Virus record (IMG/VR): IMGVR_UViG_2740892431_000015
From: a virus
Taxonomy: Duplodnaviria; Heunggongvirae; Uroviricota; Caudoviricetes
DNA length: 9,944 bases
Strand: one strand, 5' to 3'
Translations under genes and position numbers: made by a program
Notes under the pieces: model-generated
Told to the model about the DNA's origin: nothing
The model's input: only the letters and a program-made list of their open reading frames with translations
The model's database searches: none
In this document: piece after piece, positions 37 through 9,812 of the stretch
Layout of the letters: every line of letters begins with the position of its first letter
Position numbering within the stretch: position 1 is the first letter of the stretch

Positions 37-2142
37 ATGGCTAAAGCATGGAAAGATGTTATCGCCTCTCCACAGTATCAGGCGTTAGCACCAGAACAAA
101 AAGCGCAGGCTCAGGAGCAATACTTCAATGAAGTCGTGGCCCCGCAAGCCGGAGAAAGTGTAGCGCAGGCTAAGCAGGCTTTTTATGCTGCCTATCCACT
201 ACCATCAACGAATGAAATAGACCGATCCCAATCAGCAACTCAAAATATTCAACATACATCATCTGATAATTCTCTTGCGTCAGGGTATGCAAAGTTAGCT
301 ACTCAGCAAAGAGAGGGGCTTGAGCGTTCAGCAGAACAGGGAGCCAGTCTTGGGGCTGCGATGCGCGATGCTATAACAGGCGAAAGCCGAATGACTCCAG
401 AGATGGAGAGACTGCAAAATGTCGACCTTGCCCCAGAGTTAACCTCACTCAGCATGGGTGCTCTAAAAGCTCGATGGTCTCAACTTTTCGGCTCTGACGC
501 ATCTCAGGAAAAGATTCTTCAGAGCATGGGAGCGAAATTAAGGCAGGATGAGAAGGGTAACACTATCGTTTCCCTGCCATCCGGTGATTATGCTCTGAAC
601 AAGCCGGGTTTATCGCCGCAAGACGTGGCATCGTTTCTGGCTAATGCGCTGGCGTTTACACCAGCGGGCAGGGCTGGAACGGTGCTTGGTGCCATAGGAA
701 AATCAGCAGCTACAGATTTAGCACTACAGGGAGCCACCAGCCTTGCTGGTGGAGAAGATATTGATCCGTTACAAACGGTAATTTCTGCTGGCATTGGTGG
801 TATTGGTAAGGGGCTGGAAAATACAGCGAGTGCGGTTTCGAGGGCTGTTCGTGGTGATATGTCGCCTGAAGCAAAGGCTGCTGTCAACTTTGCATCGGAA
901 AGAAATCTGCCGTTAATGACCAGTGACATGCTGAAAGATAAAACCTTTATGCAGAGTCAGGCTCAGACATTAGGCGAAAGAGTTCCTTTTTTTGGAACCG
1001 GTAAGAATCGGCTGAATCAACAACAAGCACGAGAAAATTTAGTCAGAACATTTAGCGATGGTCTGGGTGGCATTTCTGATAAACAGCTTTATGAATCTGC
1101 GACTAAAGGGCAACAAAAATTCATTGAGGCAGCAGGAAAGCGATATAACCGCATAATTGACGCTATGGGGGATACCCCTGTCGATCTCTCAAACACGGTA
1201 AAAGCTATCGACAATCAGATTGCCGTGTTAAGCCGCCCGGGCAAATCTCAGGATAGAGCCGCGGTAAAAGTCTTGCAGCAATTTAAAGACGATATCACCA
1301 GCGGACCAAATGACCTGCGTCTGGCGAGGGAAAACAGAACCGATCTTCGAAAGCGATTTATGGCGTCATCTGACACTGTTGATAAAGATACGCTCCAGAA
1401 AGCCAGCGATATTATCTACAAGGCATATACGGCGGATATGAAAAAAGCCGTAGCCAAAAATCTTGGAGCAGACGAAGCCATTAATATGGCAAGGGTTGAT
1501 CGGTCATGGTCTAAATTCAATGACATGATGGGAAGAACGCGCGTTCAAAAGGCAATAGCCAGCGGTAAGGCCACGCCTGAGGATGTAACAAAACTCGTTT
1601 TTAGCCAAAGCCCATCAGAACGTTCTCAGCTTTACAGGCTTCTGGATGACAATGGTAGGCAAAACGCACGAGCAGCCATAGTTCAGAATGCTGTAGATAA
1701 GGCGACTGATCCGTCTGGAAATATCAGTGTTGAGAAGTTTATTAATGCGTTACACCGGAACAGGAAGCAATCAGCAACTTTCTTTAAAGGCGTACATGGA
1801 AAGGAACTGGACGGCGTTATTAAATACCTCAACGATACAAGACACGCGGCAAAAGCGAACGTTCAAAACTTAAATGGTCAGCAGCTTTATGGATTGTTAG
1901 TTGGTGGTGGCATCATAAACGCAGCAGTATTAGCGGGGATGCTAAAAACGGCTGCGTTTGTTGTTCCTGCTGCTGGTGCCGTAGGCGGAGCAGCGAAGGC
2001 ATACGAAAGCCCTGTTATACGAAATGCCTTGTTACGTCTGGCAAATACGCCAAAAGGTAGCACAGCATATGACAGAGCGATCAGTACGGTCACACAATCG
2101 CTCACCAGAGTCGCACAGGCATCACAAAAAGAAGCTCAATAA
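37..2142 (+). CDS. Large hypothetical protein (701 aa), Ala/Gln/Lys-rich and probably helical, with internal Gly-rich segment and C-terminal glycine-zipper-like hydrophobic hairpin; candidate membrane-active protein (bacteriocin-like toxin, or phage tape-measure/ejection protein)
   Basis: Long uninterrupted ORF in typical-GC DNA; ATG at 37 preceded by GGGTGA; in-frame TGA at 31-33 means the frame cannot extend upstream. Hydrophobic Gly/Ala-rich stretch LLVGGGIINAAVLAGMLKTAAFVVPAAGAVGGAAKAY near residues 623-662, followed by a ~40-aa polar tail. Antisense ORFs inside it are shadows. Confidence 0.8.
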   Translation: MAKAWKDVIASPQYQALAPEQKAQAQEQYFNEVVAPQAGESVAQAKQAFYAAYPLPSTNEIDRSQSATQNIQHTSSDNSLASGYAKLATQQREGLERSAEQGASLGAAMRDAITGESRMTPEMERLQNVDLAPELTSLSMGALKARWSQLFGSDASQEKILQSMGAKLRQDEKGNTIVSLPSGDYALNKPGLSPQDVASFLANALAFTPAGRAGTVLGAIGKSAATDLALQGATSLAGGEDIDPLQTVISAGIGGIGKGLENTASAVSRAVRGDMSPEAKAAVNFASERNLPLMTSDMLKDKTFMQSQAQTLGERVPFFGTGKNRLNQQQARENLVRTFSDGLGGISDKQLYESATKGQQKFIEAAGKRYNRIIDAMGDTPVDLSNTVKAIDNQIAVLSRPGKSQDRAAVKVLQQFKDDITSGPNDLRLARENRTDLRKRFMASSDTVDKDTLQKASDIIYKAYTADMKKAVAKNLGADEAINMARVDRSWSKFNDMMGRTRVQKAIASGKATPEDVTKLVFSQSPSERSQLYRLLDDNGRQNARAAIVQNAVDKATDPSGNISVEKFINALHRNRKQSATFFKGVHGKELDGVIKYLNDTRHAAKANVQNLNGQQLYGLLVGGGIINAAVLAGMLKTAAFVVPAAGAVGGAAKAYESPVIRNALLRLANTPKGSTAYDRAISTVTQSLTRVAQASQKEAQ

Positions 2143-6901: not shown

Positions 6902-7060
6902 ATGAAAAACATTGCAGCTATCAAACGTAATAACCGCAAGATTCACGCTCGTAAGTTCCTGTCTACGCCAGAAGGAAAAGCCTGGCTAGAGCGTAAACAG
7001 AGAGAGAACGAAGAAAGAAAACTCCTTAATGAGTTGAAATGGCTTAGAGAGGATTTCTGA
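6902..7060 (+). CDS. Small basic protein (52 aa), below the ORF-track threshold: MKNIAAIKRNNRKIHARKFLSTPEGKAWLERKQRENEERKLLNELKWLREDF
   Basis: ATG at 6902 with AGAGG Shine-Dalgarno at 6891-6895 (6-nt spacer); TGA at 7058-7060; sits alone in AT-rich DNA that is otherwise noncoding. Confidence 0.45.
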   Translation: MKNIAAIKRNNRKIHARKFLSTPEGKAWLERKQRENEERKLLNELKWLREDF

Positions 7061-7224
7061 AAATCTCCAGAACGCAACAGGACGCATTCTAACGCTATTT
7101 TCATTGCTTGGTATAGGGATGTATAGGTGATGTGTGTTTAATGCGTCTGTGCGCTTGTTTTGTGCCTTATTTTGCATTTTCATAATGCAGAAGAGAACAC
7201 GGAAAACCTTAAAATTAATTATTG

Positions 7225-7262
7225 GGGTATTTAAGGGTATTTTCAGGTGATTTAAGGGTATT
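7225..7262 (+). repeat. GGGTATT(T/A) direct repeats, including two 13-bp copies ATTTAAGGGTATT spaced 20 bp apart
   Basis: gggtattt at 7225-7232 and 7235-7242, gggtatta at 7256-7263; related GGGGGTA pair at 6199-6220. Confidence 0.5.
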
Positions 7263-7330
7263 AAACTTGATTTAATTGATTAAAATATAAACAGATAGTT
7301 GTGTATCTTATTGATTTATAAGGTTATTTT

Positions 7331-7390
7331 TAAATAAAGGTAAATAAAAAATAAATAGCCATAAATAGCTATAAATACATCTAAATACCT
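7331..7390 (+). repeat. Six tandem 10-bp units of (A/T)TAAATA-type, 10-bp helical phasing (probable intrinsically curved DNA)
   Basis: taaataaagg, taaataaaaa, ataaatagcc, ataaatagct, ataaatacat, ctaaatacct occupying consecutive 10-bp blocks 7331-7390. Confidence 0.55.
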
Positions 7391-7872
7391 ATATCCCTTC
7401 CCTTATGGCTAGATTGCGAGAGGTGCTTAACGCGATTTTCAGCGCCCCCCGATCTGGAAAATCCAGAATCCCCAAATATCAGCAAGGAATTTTCTTGCGT
7501 AATCAACATCGTTTTTACCTATTAAATCATTACACAGAAAGCCTTTCTGTAATGTCTCTCACTAAACTTTCACTAAACACGAGAATGATCGGTTTTATGT
7601 CGGATCAGATGCTAGAAACAGCACCACGTCTCACAAGGACTGTAAGCGATGAAACCAGTGTTTATGCGGGTGCAGGTCAAAATATAGGCCAAAATCAATT
7701 TAACATAATAAACGTAATATGCACTAAGGAACACATAGAACGCCTTGAGTTGATGTATCAGGGGAAAAAAGTGATGGATTTTTTACGTAGGAGCACGAGA
7801 GGGCTTCTGTTGACTTTTGTATGCTATGAAACATAATTAAAGGTTTTTTTGTTTTTATTGTGTGATGTAGTG

Positions 7873-7900
7873 GATTACACAGGGGAATAGATTAAATGGT
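7873..7900 (+). repeat. Iteron copy GATTACACAGGGGAATAGATTAAATGG (ATTACACAGG family)
   Basis: Shares the ATTACACAGGG-AATA...GATTA-TGG pattern with the tandem copies at 8224-8287. Confidence 0.45.
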
Positions 7901-8223
7901 GTTCTGTTTATACAGGTTTATTTGTTAGATCAACAATTTGGCATTTCTAAACAGATGTTTGAACGTTGCCAAATGTCTTGACAACACAAGAAAAGGGCTT
8001 GCTATGCCACGCATTACACGAAATAAGGCTGTAAAAACAAAATAAATTTTAAAATTTGCACAAACGAGAAAACTCGTTAAGAAACAAGCAGAACAATTTT
8101 TAGCCAACAATTTCTGATGGTGCTCTGTAGGCCGCACTACACAAGGATTTGCGAAAGTGATGTAAAAGTGAAGAAAGTAAGAATTGCACTTTTAAGCTAC
8201 TTTTCATTGAATTTTTAGTATGG

Positions 8224-8287
8224 AATTACACAGGAATAAGTTAGGGATATTCTATGATTTACACAGGGAATATAGGGGATTATGGCA
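8224..8287 (+). repeat. Tandem pair of ~32-bp imperfect direct repeats (ATTACACAGG family iterons)
   Basis: aattacacaggaataagttagggatattctatg (8224-8256) and atttacacagggaatataggggattatggcac (8256-8287); further single cores at 8013-8020, 8136-8146, 8303-8311 and 9405-9415. Confidence 0.55.
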
Positions 8288-8459
8288 CACACATAGAAAG
8301 GCATTACACAGAGTGAGTGCTATGTGATGATTGGTAGTAACGGTAGGTCATAGTGAGCTAGGGGGTAGGTCACTGTGAACTACAATAAGACTATTAATAA
8401 AACTATATTAGATTATTAATTAGATCATAATAATAATATTCTTTATATCTATATATATG

Positions 8460-8880
8460 ATCTTTTGCCTTCCGGCGTTAGCTTCACTCTCTGGCAAGCA
8501 GCCTTACTCCGCTACCTTTCGGGCTTCGTGGCTGGCCCGTTCCGCTCACACCGAAAGCAAAGCGTTACTTTCTTCGTGTAACTTCGTTGGCGGTAACGCC
8601 CACGAAGAAATCTATTGCGCTGTGCGCAGTAAGAGTAATCACCTAACCAATCATACTGATTGCTTATGTGTTAACTCTCTCTAACTCTTAATTACCCTCC
8701 TACATTTAATAACTCTGTTATTCTCTGTAGTTGTGTAATTACTCGAAGAGAGAGCGGCTAAAGCTCAATTACACTCTGCTTTCCTCGTGTAATTTCACTA
8801 AGCCTCAATACAATTTCACTTCCTACATTCTGTAGTCGTGTAATTGTTTTCGGTGGAAAAGCCAGAGGCGACACCGAAAG
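8460..8880 (+). other. GC-enriched structured island inside AT-rich DNA; candidate structured ncRNA or single-strand initiation/origin hairpins
   Basis: Hairpin 8516-8557 (ctttcgg / ccgaaag); hairpin 8570-8609 (9-bp stem ttcttcgtg / cacgaagaa enclosing GGCG-GTAA-CGCC, a GNRA tetraloop); hairpin 8848-8879 (tttcggtg / caccgaaa); 10-mer ACACCGAAAG repeated at 8548-8557 and 8871-8880. The 75-aa ORF here has no ribosome-binding site. Confidence 0.3.
8721..8845 (+). repeat. Two direct repeats TTCT(CT)GTAGT(T/C)GTGTAATT carrying the iteron core in reverse orientation
   Basis: 8721-8740 and 8828-8845; further reverse-orientation cores CGTGTAA(C/T) at 8575-8582 and 8785-8793. Confidence 0.45.
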
Positions 8881-8888
8881 AGAATTCT

Positions 8889-8950
8889 GATCTTATTAAT
8901 CTTATCTATCTTAGTTAATCTTCTTACTTATCTTACTTACTTTATCTACT
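8889..8950 (+). repeat. Degenerate 9-bp tandem repeat (ATCTTAnnn) in a G-depleted pyrimidine-rich tract
   Basis: TCTTA at 8890, 8899, 8908, 8921, 8930 (mostly exact 9-bp spacing); only one G between 8889 and 8965 on the top strand. Confidence 0.5.
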
Positions 8951-9481
8951 TTATTATTAATAATAGCTTTATAAGCTCTCTGTGTAGCTCTCTGACGCAA
9001 GAAACAGCATTCAGGAAGGGAATCACCTTAGAAAAGGTGTTCTTTGCGTCATAATGTGTTTTATGAAGGATTCAGAGGTGTTTCATAACAGGAATGTATA
9101 GAGAATACTTTAGGTAATTAAAAATAAGGGGTCTAAATGCTTCTCTAACAGCATTAAGCAGGGTAGGGAATGGAAACGCATTGCCTACATATAATAAACT
9201 CACTACAGGGCTTTACAGGGCGTTTTATAAAGTGACTCTCTGTTTTATATCTACAATCACCTTTTCATATACCTAACAAATACAAAATAAGCCCCTTAAA
9301 TAAGCCTCTGGCGAGCTAAACAGACATTACATAAGAGAATGTATTGCTTTTATCAAAACTTCGTTAGAACGCGTTTTAGAGCGTTTTAGCGGATAATGAA
9401 GAATAGCACTACACAGAAGAGCACGAATTGCTAAGACAAATTATAACATGCTGAAAAAGATCGATTTTTTCGAAAAGGGTA

Positions 9482-9510
9482 TTGACAAATGTTTCTTTAT
9501 ATGTAATAAT
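9482..9510 (+). promoter_or_regulatory. Sigma70-type promoter candidate with extended -10 (TTGACA, 17-bp spacer, TGtAATAAT)
   Basis: Consensus -35 TTGACA at 9482-9487; TG at 9503-9504 and AATAAT at 9505-9510; would give a ~105-nt leader to the ATG at 9624. Confidence 0.45.
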
Positions 9511-9623
9511 AGGTATTAGAGGGACAGAAAAACATTCTTCTCTAAATAATCAAAATCAATGCACTTTGAAGCCGTCAGGCTTGCAAGGTGTTTTATTTCT
9601 TTTAACTGAATAAGGAGTTTTTT

Positions 9624-9812
9624 ATGAAATGGTTTACACCGGAGCACGTCGTAAAGGCATTTAAAAAAGGTGAGCTTACACGCCACCAAATAGTAATGAA
9701 TCGTAATATGGCAAGGAGTCGAGGTTATCCAGAGCGAGCAGCTTGCTTCAATGAAGCACTCAAGATTATTGATGAACTAAGAAAAAATGAAAAAGAATCT
9801 GAAACAGAGTAA
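9624..9812 (+). CDS. Small hypothetical protein (62 aa)
   Basis: Strong AAGGAG Shine-Dalgarno at 9612-9617 with 6-nt spacer; candidate promoter upstream; followed 19 bp later by a second gene with its own ribosome-binding site. Confidence 0.6.
   Translation: MKWFTPEHVVKAFKKGELTRHQIVMNRNMARSRGYPERAACFNEALKIIDELRKNEKESETE

Follow-up and report, generated by a model that had tools for sequence, protein, structure and literature searches.

The DNA analysed here (the window, 9,944 nucleotides (nt)) is the virus record IMGVR_UViG_2740892431_000015, and this work concerns a structured non-coding island at positions 8460-8880 within it. The window is 99.8% identical to the chromosome of Escherichia coli isolate AF3 (NZ_OZ547117), in which it belongs to a genomic island next to tRNA-Thr and the RefSeq annotation contains no features between window positions 7074 and 9636. 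The element is also present in O26 strains. Downstream of the island follow two small genes, a Rep-like initiator gene, a capsid gene, a tape-measure-like gene, a Dit-like gene and an integrase gene. The Rep-like initiator (HTH_36/DUF6945; phrog_270, described in PHROG as 'replication initiation protein') is encoded just beyond the window end, the capsid gene product is a Phage_cap_E major capsid protein, and the tape-measure-like protein contains ~613 amino acids (aa). In strain 20KM2222 this unit, of ~13 kb, directly abuts tRNA-Thr, and a P4-like satellite comes next. Since neither portal nor terminase was annotated or detected in the ~13-kb element, we infer that this integrative, capsid-encoding element is phage-satellite-like.

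A preliminary description of the locus, made from its letters alone, had noted a GC-enriched stretch of ~420 bp with three stem-loops, and both observations were borne out. The G+C content is 44.9% over 8460-8880, falls to 11.8% at 8384-8459 and 20.0% at 8881-8975, and is 35% in the wider non-coding stretch 7074-8339; the GC skew becomes negative over the island. All three stem-loops fold as described, with energies of -11.8 kcal/mol (8516-8557), -16.1 kcal/mol (8570-8609, with GGCG-GTAA-CGCC as its inner hairpin) and -13.2 kcal/mol (8848-8879), and the 3' arm ACACCGAAAG that two of them were said to share is indeed present in two copies, at 8548-8557 and 8871-8880 (repeat family D12). When we calculated the minimum free energy (MFE) of 8455-8885 (431 nt), the values were -132.9 kcal/mol for the plus strand (z -5.9) and -155.9 kcal/mol for the minus strand (z -7.6), and none of 100 dinucleotide shuffles matched this stability on either strand. 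A 200-nt sliding scan of 7000-9700 revealed that 8300-8900 is the longest unbroken run with z ≤ -3 on both strands, and the single windows 7900-8099 and 9000-9199 also reached z ≤ -3. The former, which lies left of the iterons, forms a smaller structured patch (z -3.5 on plus and -4.8 on minus) with inverted repeats at 7903-7955 and 7837-8052.

The region was detected by BLAST in 752 of 5426 complete E. coli genomes, about one in seven. Among close relatives the island is ~97% identical, and the 22-bp repeat upstream of it varies in number from 2 to 5. Two short BLAST matches pointed to divergent versions in other islands. With these versions at hand, ~60 nt stood out as nearly identical across types, and exact-pattern scans with this stretch yielded 88 loci with 69 unique sequences in ~15 clusters. 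Its near-invariance is partly due to ascertainment, since the loci were chosen by an exact match inside that very stretch. To avoid this bias, homologs of the capsid protein were also searched for and their contigs fetched. The gene order is the same in all of these contigs, each of which has a 1.1-2 kb non-coding gap. A profile search located the island in Klebsiella pneumoniae, Klebsiella aerogenes, Citrobacter, Cronobacter, Enterobacter and Dryocola, and the homolog set comprised ~15 sequence types and six genera.

Examination of covariation across homologs, as the preliminary description had proposed, revealed compensatory changes. Since hairpins of different types are not homologous, whole-length MAFFT alignment followed by RNAalifold lost most of the helices, and anchor-delimited segments were used instead. 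Every hairpin slot delimited in this way contains a stable hairpin in all types despite differing sequences. Within clusters of at least 80% identity, 43 base pairs were variable, of which 12 showed at least two Watson-Crick types and 15 alternated between Watson-Crick and G-U; in the slot Hp5, 5 of 11 pairs were changed on both sides. The most conserved part of the island is the core hairpin at its left end, closest to the AT-rich block. Its P2 helix is CAGCC/GGCUG, GUGUCC/GGACAU, UGACC/GGUCA or UC[GA]ACC/GGU[GA]GA once other genera are included, and of the six pairs in the P2/P3 helix, five were changed on both sides across genera. In the core hairpin 90.9% of cells were paired, compared with 18-38% when the partners were slid, and its covariation score of 0.395 (0.189 after shuffling) was reached by none of 500 shuffles. 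A covariance model of the core matched every island-bearing locus exactly once (34-52 bits), in each case on the opposite strand to the Rep and capsid genes, and matched nothing else in 324 kb; the window core hairpin was matched on the minus strand by covariance model R1 with 45.7 bits (E 8e-11). Together with the strand bias and the fixed position described below, these results firmly show a conserved, strand-biased and compensated fold that is attached to the origin/Rep module.

We then compared the two strands. The consensus folds of the segment clusters comprise 514 pairs, 39 invariant G-U pairs and a summed energy of -501 kcal/mol on the minus strand; the corresponding plus-strand values are 475, 11 and -368 kcal/mol. 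The MFE was lower on minus by 12-34 kcal/mol in all 14 types, and the shuffle-corrected z was more negative on minus in all eight further types (four other genera being included) as well as in the window. Unpaired bases on the minus strand are 44% A, 24% G, 19% U and 12% C, and an A-rich, C-poor composition is the usual make-up of unpaired bases in folded RNAs. In addition, the internal loops are purine-rich on minus, and the single-base mismatches within helices are G-G, A-G and A-A on that strand. Taken together, the G-U pairs, the shuffle-corrected z, the A-rich unpaired bases and the candidate promoters described below favour the minus strand as the functional one. The earlier suggestion of a structured RNA or a single-stranded DNA element thus held insofar as the island is a conserved non-coding single strand, and has to be changed in the strand, since minus is favoured and the GNRA hairpin had been read on plus.

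The features of the island and its surroundings are collected in Table 1.

Table 1. Coordinates of the island, its hairpins and the neighbouring sequence features (window positions unless a locus is named)
Feature	Position	Strand	Remarks
Structured island	8460..8880	-	~nine hairpins; minus favoured as functional single strand
Core three-tier hairpin	8492..8538	-	P1 GGC/GCC; P2 CAGCC/GGCUG with CUU bulge; CCC-GAAA-GG tip
Two hairpins in variable slot, including GGCG-GTAA-CGCC hairpin	8549..8609	-	
Small hairpin GCGC-ACA-GCGC	8617..8627	-	Same sequence in almost all E. coli and K. pneumoniae types
Hairpin slot Hp5	8640..8670	-	Stem retained, sequence differs by type
Long hairpin Hp4	8674..8755	-	Paralogous to Hp2; shared ACAACUACAG...GUAG core
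Hairpin Hp3	8756..8804	-	Closed by conserved GGCU/AGCC pairing; inner stem type-variable
Hairpin Hp2	8811..8846	-	Tip extended in other types: GAUAAC-GGUA-GUUAUC or AAUAAC-GAGA-GUUAUU
Two 22-bp iterons (GGTAGGTCAYWGTGARCTAGGG)	8342..8383		Repeat family D18; relatives carry 4-5 copies
AT-rich block, 76 nt, 11.8% GC, GATC sites	8384..8459		Candidate DNA-unwinding element
Promoter-like GTGAAG-17-AAAGAT, weak	8460..8488	-	Origin-proximal end of island, facing AT-rich block
Stronger promoter-like GTGACA/GTGACG-17-AATGAT/AATAAT	L005 5030-5002; L101 2726-2698	-	Same conserved island end, facing AT-rich block
AT-rich linker, 20% GC	8881..8975		Pyrimidine-rich on plus; window-type-specific
Two tandem copies of conserved block	~8976-9070, 9130-9235		End in RUACAGGNNGUUUURU
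Candidate extended -10 TGTTATAAT	9440..9448	-	Leftward start near 9432; back-to-back with Rep-operon promoter
Strong sigma-70 promoter TTGACA-17-AATAAT with TG	9482..9510	+	Rightward operon: two small proteins and Rep-like initiator
Tyrosine-recombinase-like gene	L005 3429-3989; L091 2968-3585; L094 3138-3689; L095 3576-4133; L096-L103	-	

The set of parts conserved across types consists of the core hairpin, the GCGC-ACA-GCGC hairpin, the hairpin closed by GGCU/AGCC, the ACUACAG...GUAG hairpins and CCUCUGGC at the right edge. The three-hairpin architecture of the preliminary description is real in the window, but the arms of its first and third hairpins, which carry the ACACCGAAAG copies, occur only in the window type, so that these two hairpins are not part of the conserved design; the GGCG-GTAA-CGCC hairpin sits in a variable slot. 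In other sequence types this slot is occupied by different hairpins or by a three-way junction. The small hairpin reads GCGC-ACACG-GCGC in Cronobacter, K. aerogenes and Citrobacter. The internal loop of the core hairpin is a 3x3 GUA/GAA loop in other E. coli types; GUA opposite GAA is kept in the window (8503-8531) and in loci L096 and L097, and the two sides are swapped in K. aerogenes. A U-rich bulge of 3 nt is kept as well, and K. pneumoniae-type cores contain tandem G-A pairs within P2. The internal loop, the bulge and the tandem pairs have the look of tertiary motifs of RNA. Islands of non-window types (L018, L030, L006, L036 and others) each contain one to three copies of the hairpin tip C-G(G/U)UA-G. 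This tip has a chance expectation that we roughly estimate at ~0.2 per island, and may be a repeated contact motif for protein or RNA.

The island occupies a fixed place in the element. On the plus strand the order is always type-specific iterons, an AT-rich block with GATC sites, the island, a conserved block of 110-130 nt and a strong promoter of the Rep operon. The flanking iterons that had been reported are present as two 22-bp units (8342-8382), and other element types carry unrelated iterons at the equivalent position. Judged from its sequence, the iteron and AT-rich segment (8342-8459) is a probable replication origin. DnaA boxes are not enriched. In locus L004 a window-type island is combined with the iterons of another type. 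Since the iterons differ wholly between types and L004 mixes types, the island belongs to the origin/Rep module but is not matched to the DNA specificity of one initiator. Linkage to this module is also supported by Enterobacter element L103, which has the same capsid protein as L101 and a different replication module, and lacks the island.

Promoter-like sequences face leftward on both sides of the island. Besides the candidate extended -10 of the window, a promoter scan of L005 identified a minus-strand TTGATG-18-GATAAT back-to-back with the Rep-operon promoter, and aligned -10-like boxes occur at the equivalent place in other types (GATAAT, GATCAT, TATAAT, or TGTGGTAGAAA with an extended -10). 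A weak minus-strand TTAACT-17-TAAGAT (8918-8890) lies inside the AT-rich linker. At the other end of the island, the spacer of the GTGACA/GTGACG promoter-like element contains a GGCG-N5-CGCC hairpin. The conserved block, which is G-rich on plus, directly follows the island in other types and is duplicated in the window, and the conserved region reaches ~9235, beyond 8880. Alignment and RNAalifold detected no conserved fold in this right-hand block. An extra copy of the block lies left of the iterons in Enterobacter (L101 2270-2385), shorter GCGTTTTA repeats (9364-9388 and 9581-9595) continue up to the Rep-operon leader, and the block copies could be small plus-strand RNAs, terminators or protein sites. 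The leader itself (9511-9623) contains a terminator-like AAGCC-GUCA-GGCUU followed by a U-rich stretch, and clear terminators stand there in other types, which suggests attenuation or antitermination control of the replication genes.

Searches for known counterparts of the island were negative. Under permissive filters, no part of the window matched any Rfam 15 covariance model (ROOL, GOLLD, OLE, raiA, HEARO, RNAI, C4 and retron msr among them) at E up to 1, consistent with the novelty proposed earlier. An Rfam scan of L002, L005, L006 and L018 yielded only tRNAs, a TPP riboswitch and chance-level matches, none of them in the island. BLAST against phage records returned nothing across the island, and against plasmid records (including R1, F, R6K and ColE1-type replicons) only matches outside it. 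A full-text literature search for the core sequence retrieved no paper, and keyword searches retrieved no description. The proposed RNA is thus most likely previously undescribed, the island having no apparent counterpart in Rfam 15, phage records, homologous plasmid segments or the searchable literature.

Based on these observations, we suggest, at about even chances, that the island is the folded part of an undescribed minus-strand non-coding RNA in the origin/Rep module that would act in the activation, priming or control of replication. We infer that the functional molecule is RNA rather than single-stranded DNA, that it is made from the divergent promoter and that it acts on the neighbouring origin. 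The transcript would start at the promoter back-to-back with the Rep-operon promoter, run leftward, fold into the core hairpin and a set of variable hairpins, and end at or within the AT-rich block in the absence of a terminator. More speculatively, transcription and the origin-proximal end of the RNA may open, prime or regulate the adjacent Rep-dependent origin, and the near-invariant core hairpin may be the contact for a conserved factor of the host or the element. By analogy, such a system would resemble an activator or primer RNA, or an origin composed of a promoter and an unwinding element. An RNA directed at the origin is favoured because of its orientation, the absent terminator and the gradient of conservation toward the origin. 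A wider proposal, which we hold more tentatively and regard as somewhat short of an even call, is that the island represents a new class of large structured RNA (at least 430 nt, possibly 650-970 nt) on an uncharacterised family of integrative satellites of Enterobacteriaceae that encode capsid, tape-measure and Dit proteins. It would couple the Rep-dependent origin to a conserved host or helper factor via the core hairpin, as a regulator or primer of satellite replication. The slot divergent from the replication operon is where comparable elements carry the gene for a master repressor, and no repressor gene divergent from the Rep operon is evident here.

Here, we need to consider several observations that weigh against a leftward RNA with a replication role. 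The profile search and the covariance model detected no comparable structured block in Serratia or Sodalis relatives, and the Sodalis element has a DUF6945 Rep yet lacks the island; because it is missing from these relatives, the island is not needed by every family member. Moreover, Hp3 and Hp4 are both deleted in Escherichia sp. E1V33 (L004), and this loss together with the absence from Sodalis and Serratia relatives speaks against an indispensable role. The independence of island type and iteron type speaks against direct pairing with a specific Rep, and neither K. aerogenes nor Enterobacter keeps the long-range closing helix of the MFE fold. As to the strand, GNRA tetraloops are an equivocal test (four on plus, one on minus), and the right-hand block folds better on plus. 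All promoters are consensus matches, and the window's own candidates are weak except for the extended -10; scans of the window, L005 and L101 showed no intrinsic terminator after the island on minus. Finally, G-T pairs and hairpins suit single-stranded DNA as well as RNA.

This last point leads to another explanation, in which the unwound minus strand, the template of the rightward leading strand, would act as a priming signal whose hairpins recruit primase or PriA. The G-site beside oriR of plasmid R1 is such a single-strand initiation or primosome-assembly site, and the strand-specific hairpins of the island adjoin a candidate unwinding element on the appropriate template. Both the bias toward one strand and the compensatory changes are compatible with any single strand, neither a clear terminator nor a strong promoter was found, and a near-invariant core hairpin would suit a conserved host enzyme. 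However, the island has ~430 nt and eight to nine hairpin slots, compared with about 70-140 nt for described signals, it has no similarity to the plasmid or phage records searched, its A-rich unpaired bases and purine-rich internal loops are those of folded RNAs, and a conserved divergent promoter faces it. We therefore regard a DNA priming signal as unlikely, though worth keeping in view. An RNA on the other strand, starting in the AT-rich block, running rightward across the island and ending at RUACAGGNNGUUUURU before the Rep-operon promoter, would agree with the right-hand block, which besides its better plus-strand fold ends in a short U run, with GNRA loops on plus in the variable slot (GUAA, GAGA and GUGA) and with a promoter-like site in the AT block of L101. 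However, every strand test applied to the island itself points to minus. On plus, neither the window nor L005 has a promoter-like site upstream, the right-hand block lacks a conserved fold, and unpaired bases rich in C and U would be unusual for a folded RNA, making a plus-strand transcript improbable.

Nor do we give much weight to the idea that the island is an array of duplex DNA sites, with palindromes or cruciforms bound by element proteins and serving to enhance the origin, in a partition-like role or in packaging. The region does lie within an origin and promoter zone rich in protein binding, and the hairpin bases of the window type carry ATTACAC/GTGTAAT, which also forms direct repeats upstream. 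This motif is confined to one type, however, and between types the stems are wholly different with pairing kept and no shared half-site. G-U pairs (39 versus 11) and z (in 8 of 8 types) are asymmetric between strands, which does not agree with duplex sites, and island and iteron types assort independently. The possibility that the hairpins are a chance cluster or the remains of a protein gene is scarcely credible. The sole open reading frame of at least 40 aa, ATG-initiated and spanning 8457-8684 on the plus strand with 75 codons, had already been noted to lack a ribosome-binding site and to encode an implausible protein; it is broken by frameshifts into at least eight lengths and frames (41-121 aa) among near-identical relatives, indels among them are not multiples of three, and the homologs thus show a frameshifted reading frame rather than a gene remnant. 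The compensatory substitutions in the stems and the shuffling result (0 of 100 as stable) also stand against decay or chance.

Some further candidates were rejected. An invertible switch operated by the small tyrosine recombinase of other family members disagrees with three observations: the island has one orientation relative to the capsid gene in all capsid-derived homologs, the window type has no recombinase, and K. aerogenes and Enterobacter lack the flanking inverted repeat. An attachment or cos site was dismissed because the island is common to elements at different tRNA genes; judged by eye, it is also unlike the cos sequences of lambda or P2. A protein sponge of the CsrB/RsmZ type was rejected since none of 14 types has more GGA motifs than expected (in the window, 6 observed against an expectation of 8.9). 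The earlier mention of a retron-like RNA did not stand, as no reverse-transcriptase annotation or domain, the mark of an msr-msd locus, was found in the window, its flanks or the related loci. Similarly, a plasmid leading-region element does not agree with the context, which is a chromosomal, integrase-bearing, capsid-encoding element with a Rep. Single-stranded DNA promoters of the Frpo type lie by oriT in the leading region of conjugative plasmids and consist of a single long imperfect hairpin recreating -35 and -10 boxes, whereas the island has many short hairpins in an integrative element at tRNA-Thr.

Comparison of the proposed origin-directed RNA with known systems shows partial likenesses. 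ColE1 RNA II is likewise an untranslated, hairpin-rich RNA of several hundred nt that runs toward an origin with no terminator before it, and its origin-proximal part is the most conserved, with upstream hairpins variable among relatives. RNA II primes through R-loop formation, RNase H cleavage and extension by DNA polymerase I, and has its promoter several hundred nt upstream; for such a promoter, the candidates here are the L005 TTGATG-18-GATAAT, the aligned -10 boxes and the window TGTTATAAT (9448-9440), all consensus matches. However, RNA II is defined by Rep-independence and an iteron-free origin, whereas the present element has a Rep gene and type-specific iterons, and the two share no sequence or Rfam similarity. 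No convincing counterpart of the ~100-nt antisense RNA I, which overlaps the 5' part of RNA II, was found: the plus-biased 110-130-nt block right of the island has neither a conserved fold nor a clear promoter. The activator and silencer RNAs of R6K gamma and rctA of Vibrio cholerae chromosome II also represent untranslated transcription by a GATC-rich iteron origin that modulates Rep initiation, but they are short or act through transcription itself, are not known to have a large conserved fold and show no sequence relationship to the island. The promoter-like GTGACG-17-AAWRAT pointing straight into the AT-rich block recalls ori(uvsY) and ori(34) of phage T4, which combine a promoter with a downstream unwinding element; those R-loop origins need no iteron-binding Rep and are not known to have a large folded RNA upstream, and the window promoter is weak.

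Other resemblances concern size and setting. Like the island, G4- and phiX174-type signals and the R1 G-site are strand-specific hairpins on the leading-strand template by a Rep-dependent origin, but the island is three to six times larger, with many variable hairpin slots, and has no similarity in the plasmid collection. Described signals of this kind support priming on SSB-coated single-stranded DNA, and those of the G4 type have sequence blocks in common. ROOL and GOLLD exceed 400 nt, contain many hairpins and occur in phage-like elements near tRNA genes; the island differs in the lack of a covariance-model match at E up to 1, in its Enterobacteriaceae hosts and in its fixed position beside the origin. 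The CI immunity RNA of satellite P4 is a case of RNA in place of a repressor protein controlling the replication operon region. It is, however, ~69 nt long, lies on the same strand as the controlled operon and pairs with leader sites, whereas the island is on the opposite strand; RNAduplex runs of the island against the Rep-operon leader returned only full-length duplexes, which are uninformative on leader complementarity.

Several observations on the element itself should also be described. The family (Rep, capsid, tape-measure-like, Dit-like and integrase genes; L001 24636-34478, L002 with L090, and L091-L103) is located at tRNA genes in Escherichia, Klebsiella, Citrobacter, Enterobacter, Cronobacter, Dryocola, Sodalis and Serratia, and literature keyword searches returned no description of it. 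In most members outside the window type, the non-coding gap is bordered on its left by a minus-strand gene for a tyrosine-recombinase-like protein of 183-205 aa (Table 1), whose size is reminiscent of FimB/FimE-type invertases; inversion of the island was not seen. In K. pneumoniae elements, a Dam methylase gene (L091 4394-5083) adjoins the GATC-rich origin region. The motif ATTACACAG has nine copies in the window compared with 2.6 expected, a number reached in none of 200 shuffles; it is restricted to the window's sequence type and forms direct repeats upstream of the iterons (7529-8311, plus) and inverted copies at the bases of three island hairpins (8731-8739, minus). At window 37-2142 and L001 14275-14972, a DNA-ejection gene of the P22-gp16 family stands directly beside an IS1 copy and is followed by genes of the PerC and pRiA4b ORF-3 families. 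This region appears to be a separate prophage remnant or cargo abutting the element.

If the minus-strand RNA proposed here is real, a strongly folded RNA has gone unannotated in about one in seven complete E. coli genomes and in relatives from several genera of clinical importance, where it is built into the replication module of an apparently undescribed mobile element. It would be an enterobacterial addition to the short list of large bacterial non-coding RNAs, and would offer a tractable E. coli case for the cooperation of an untranslated RNA with an iteron-binding initiator at an origin. If the island works instead as single-stranded DNA, its size and modularity would be unusual for a priming signal. 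Under either reading, a 2.5-kb stretch left empty by annotation pipelines would be functional sequence.

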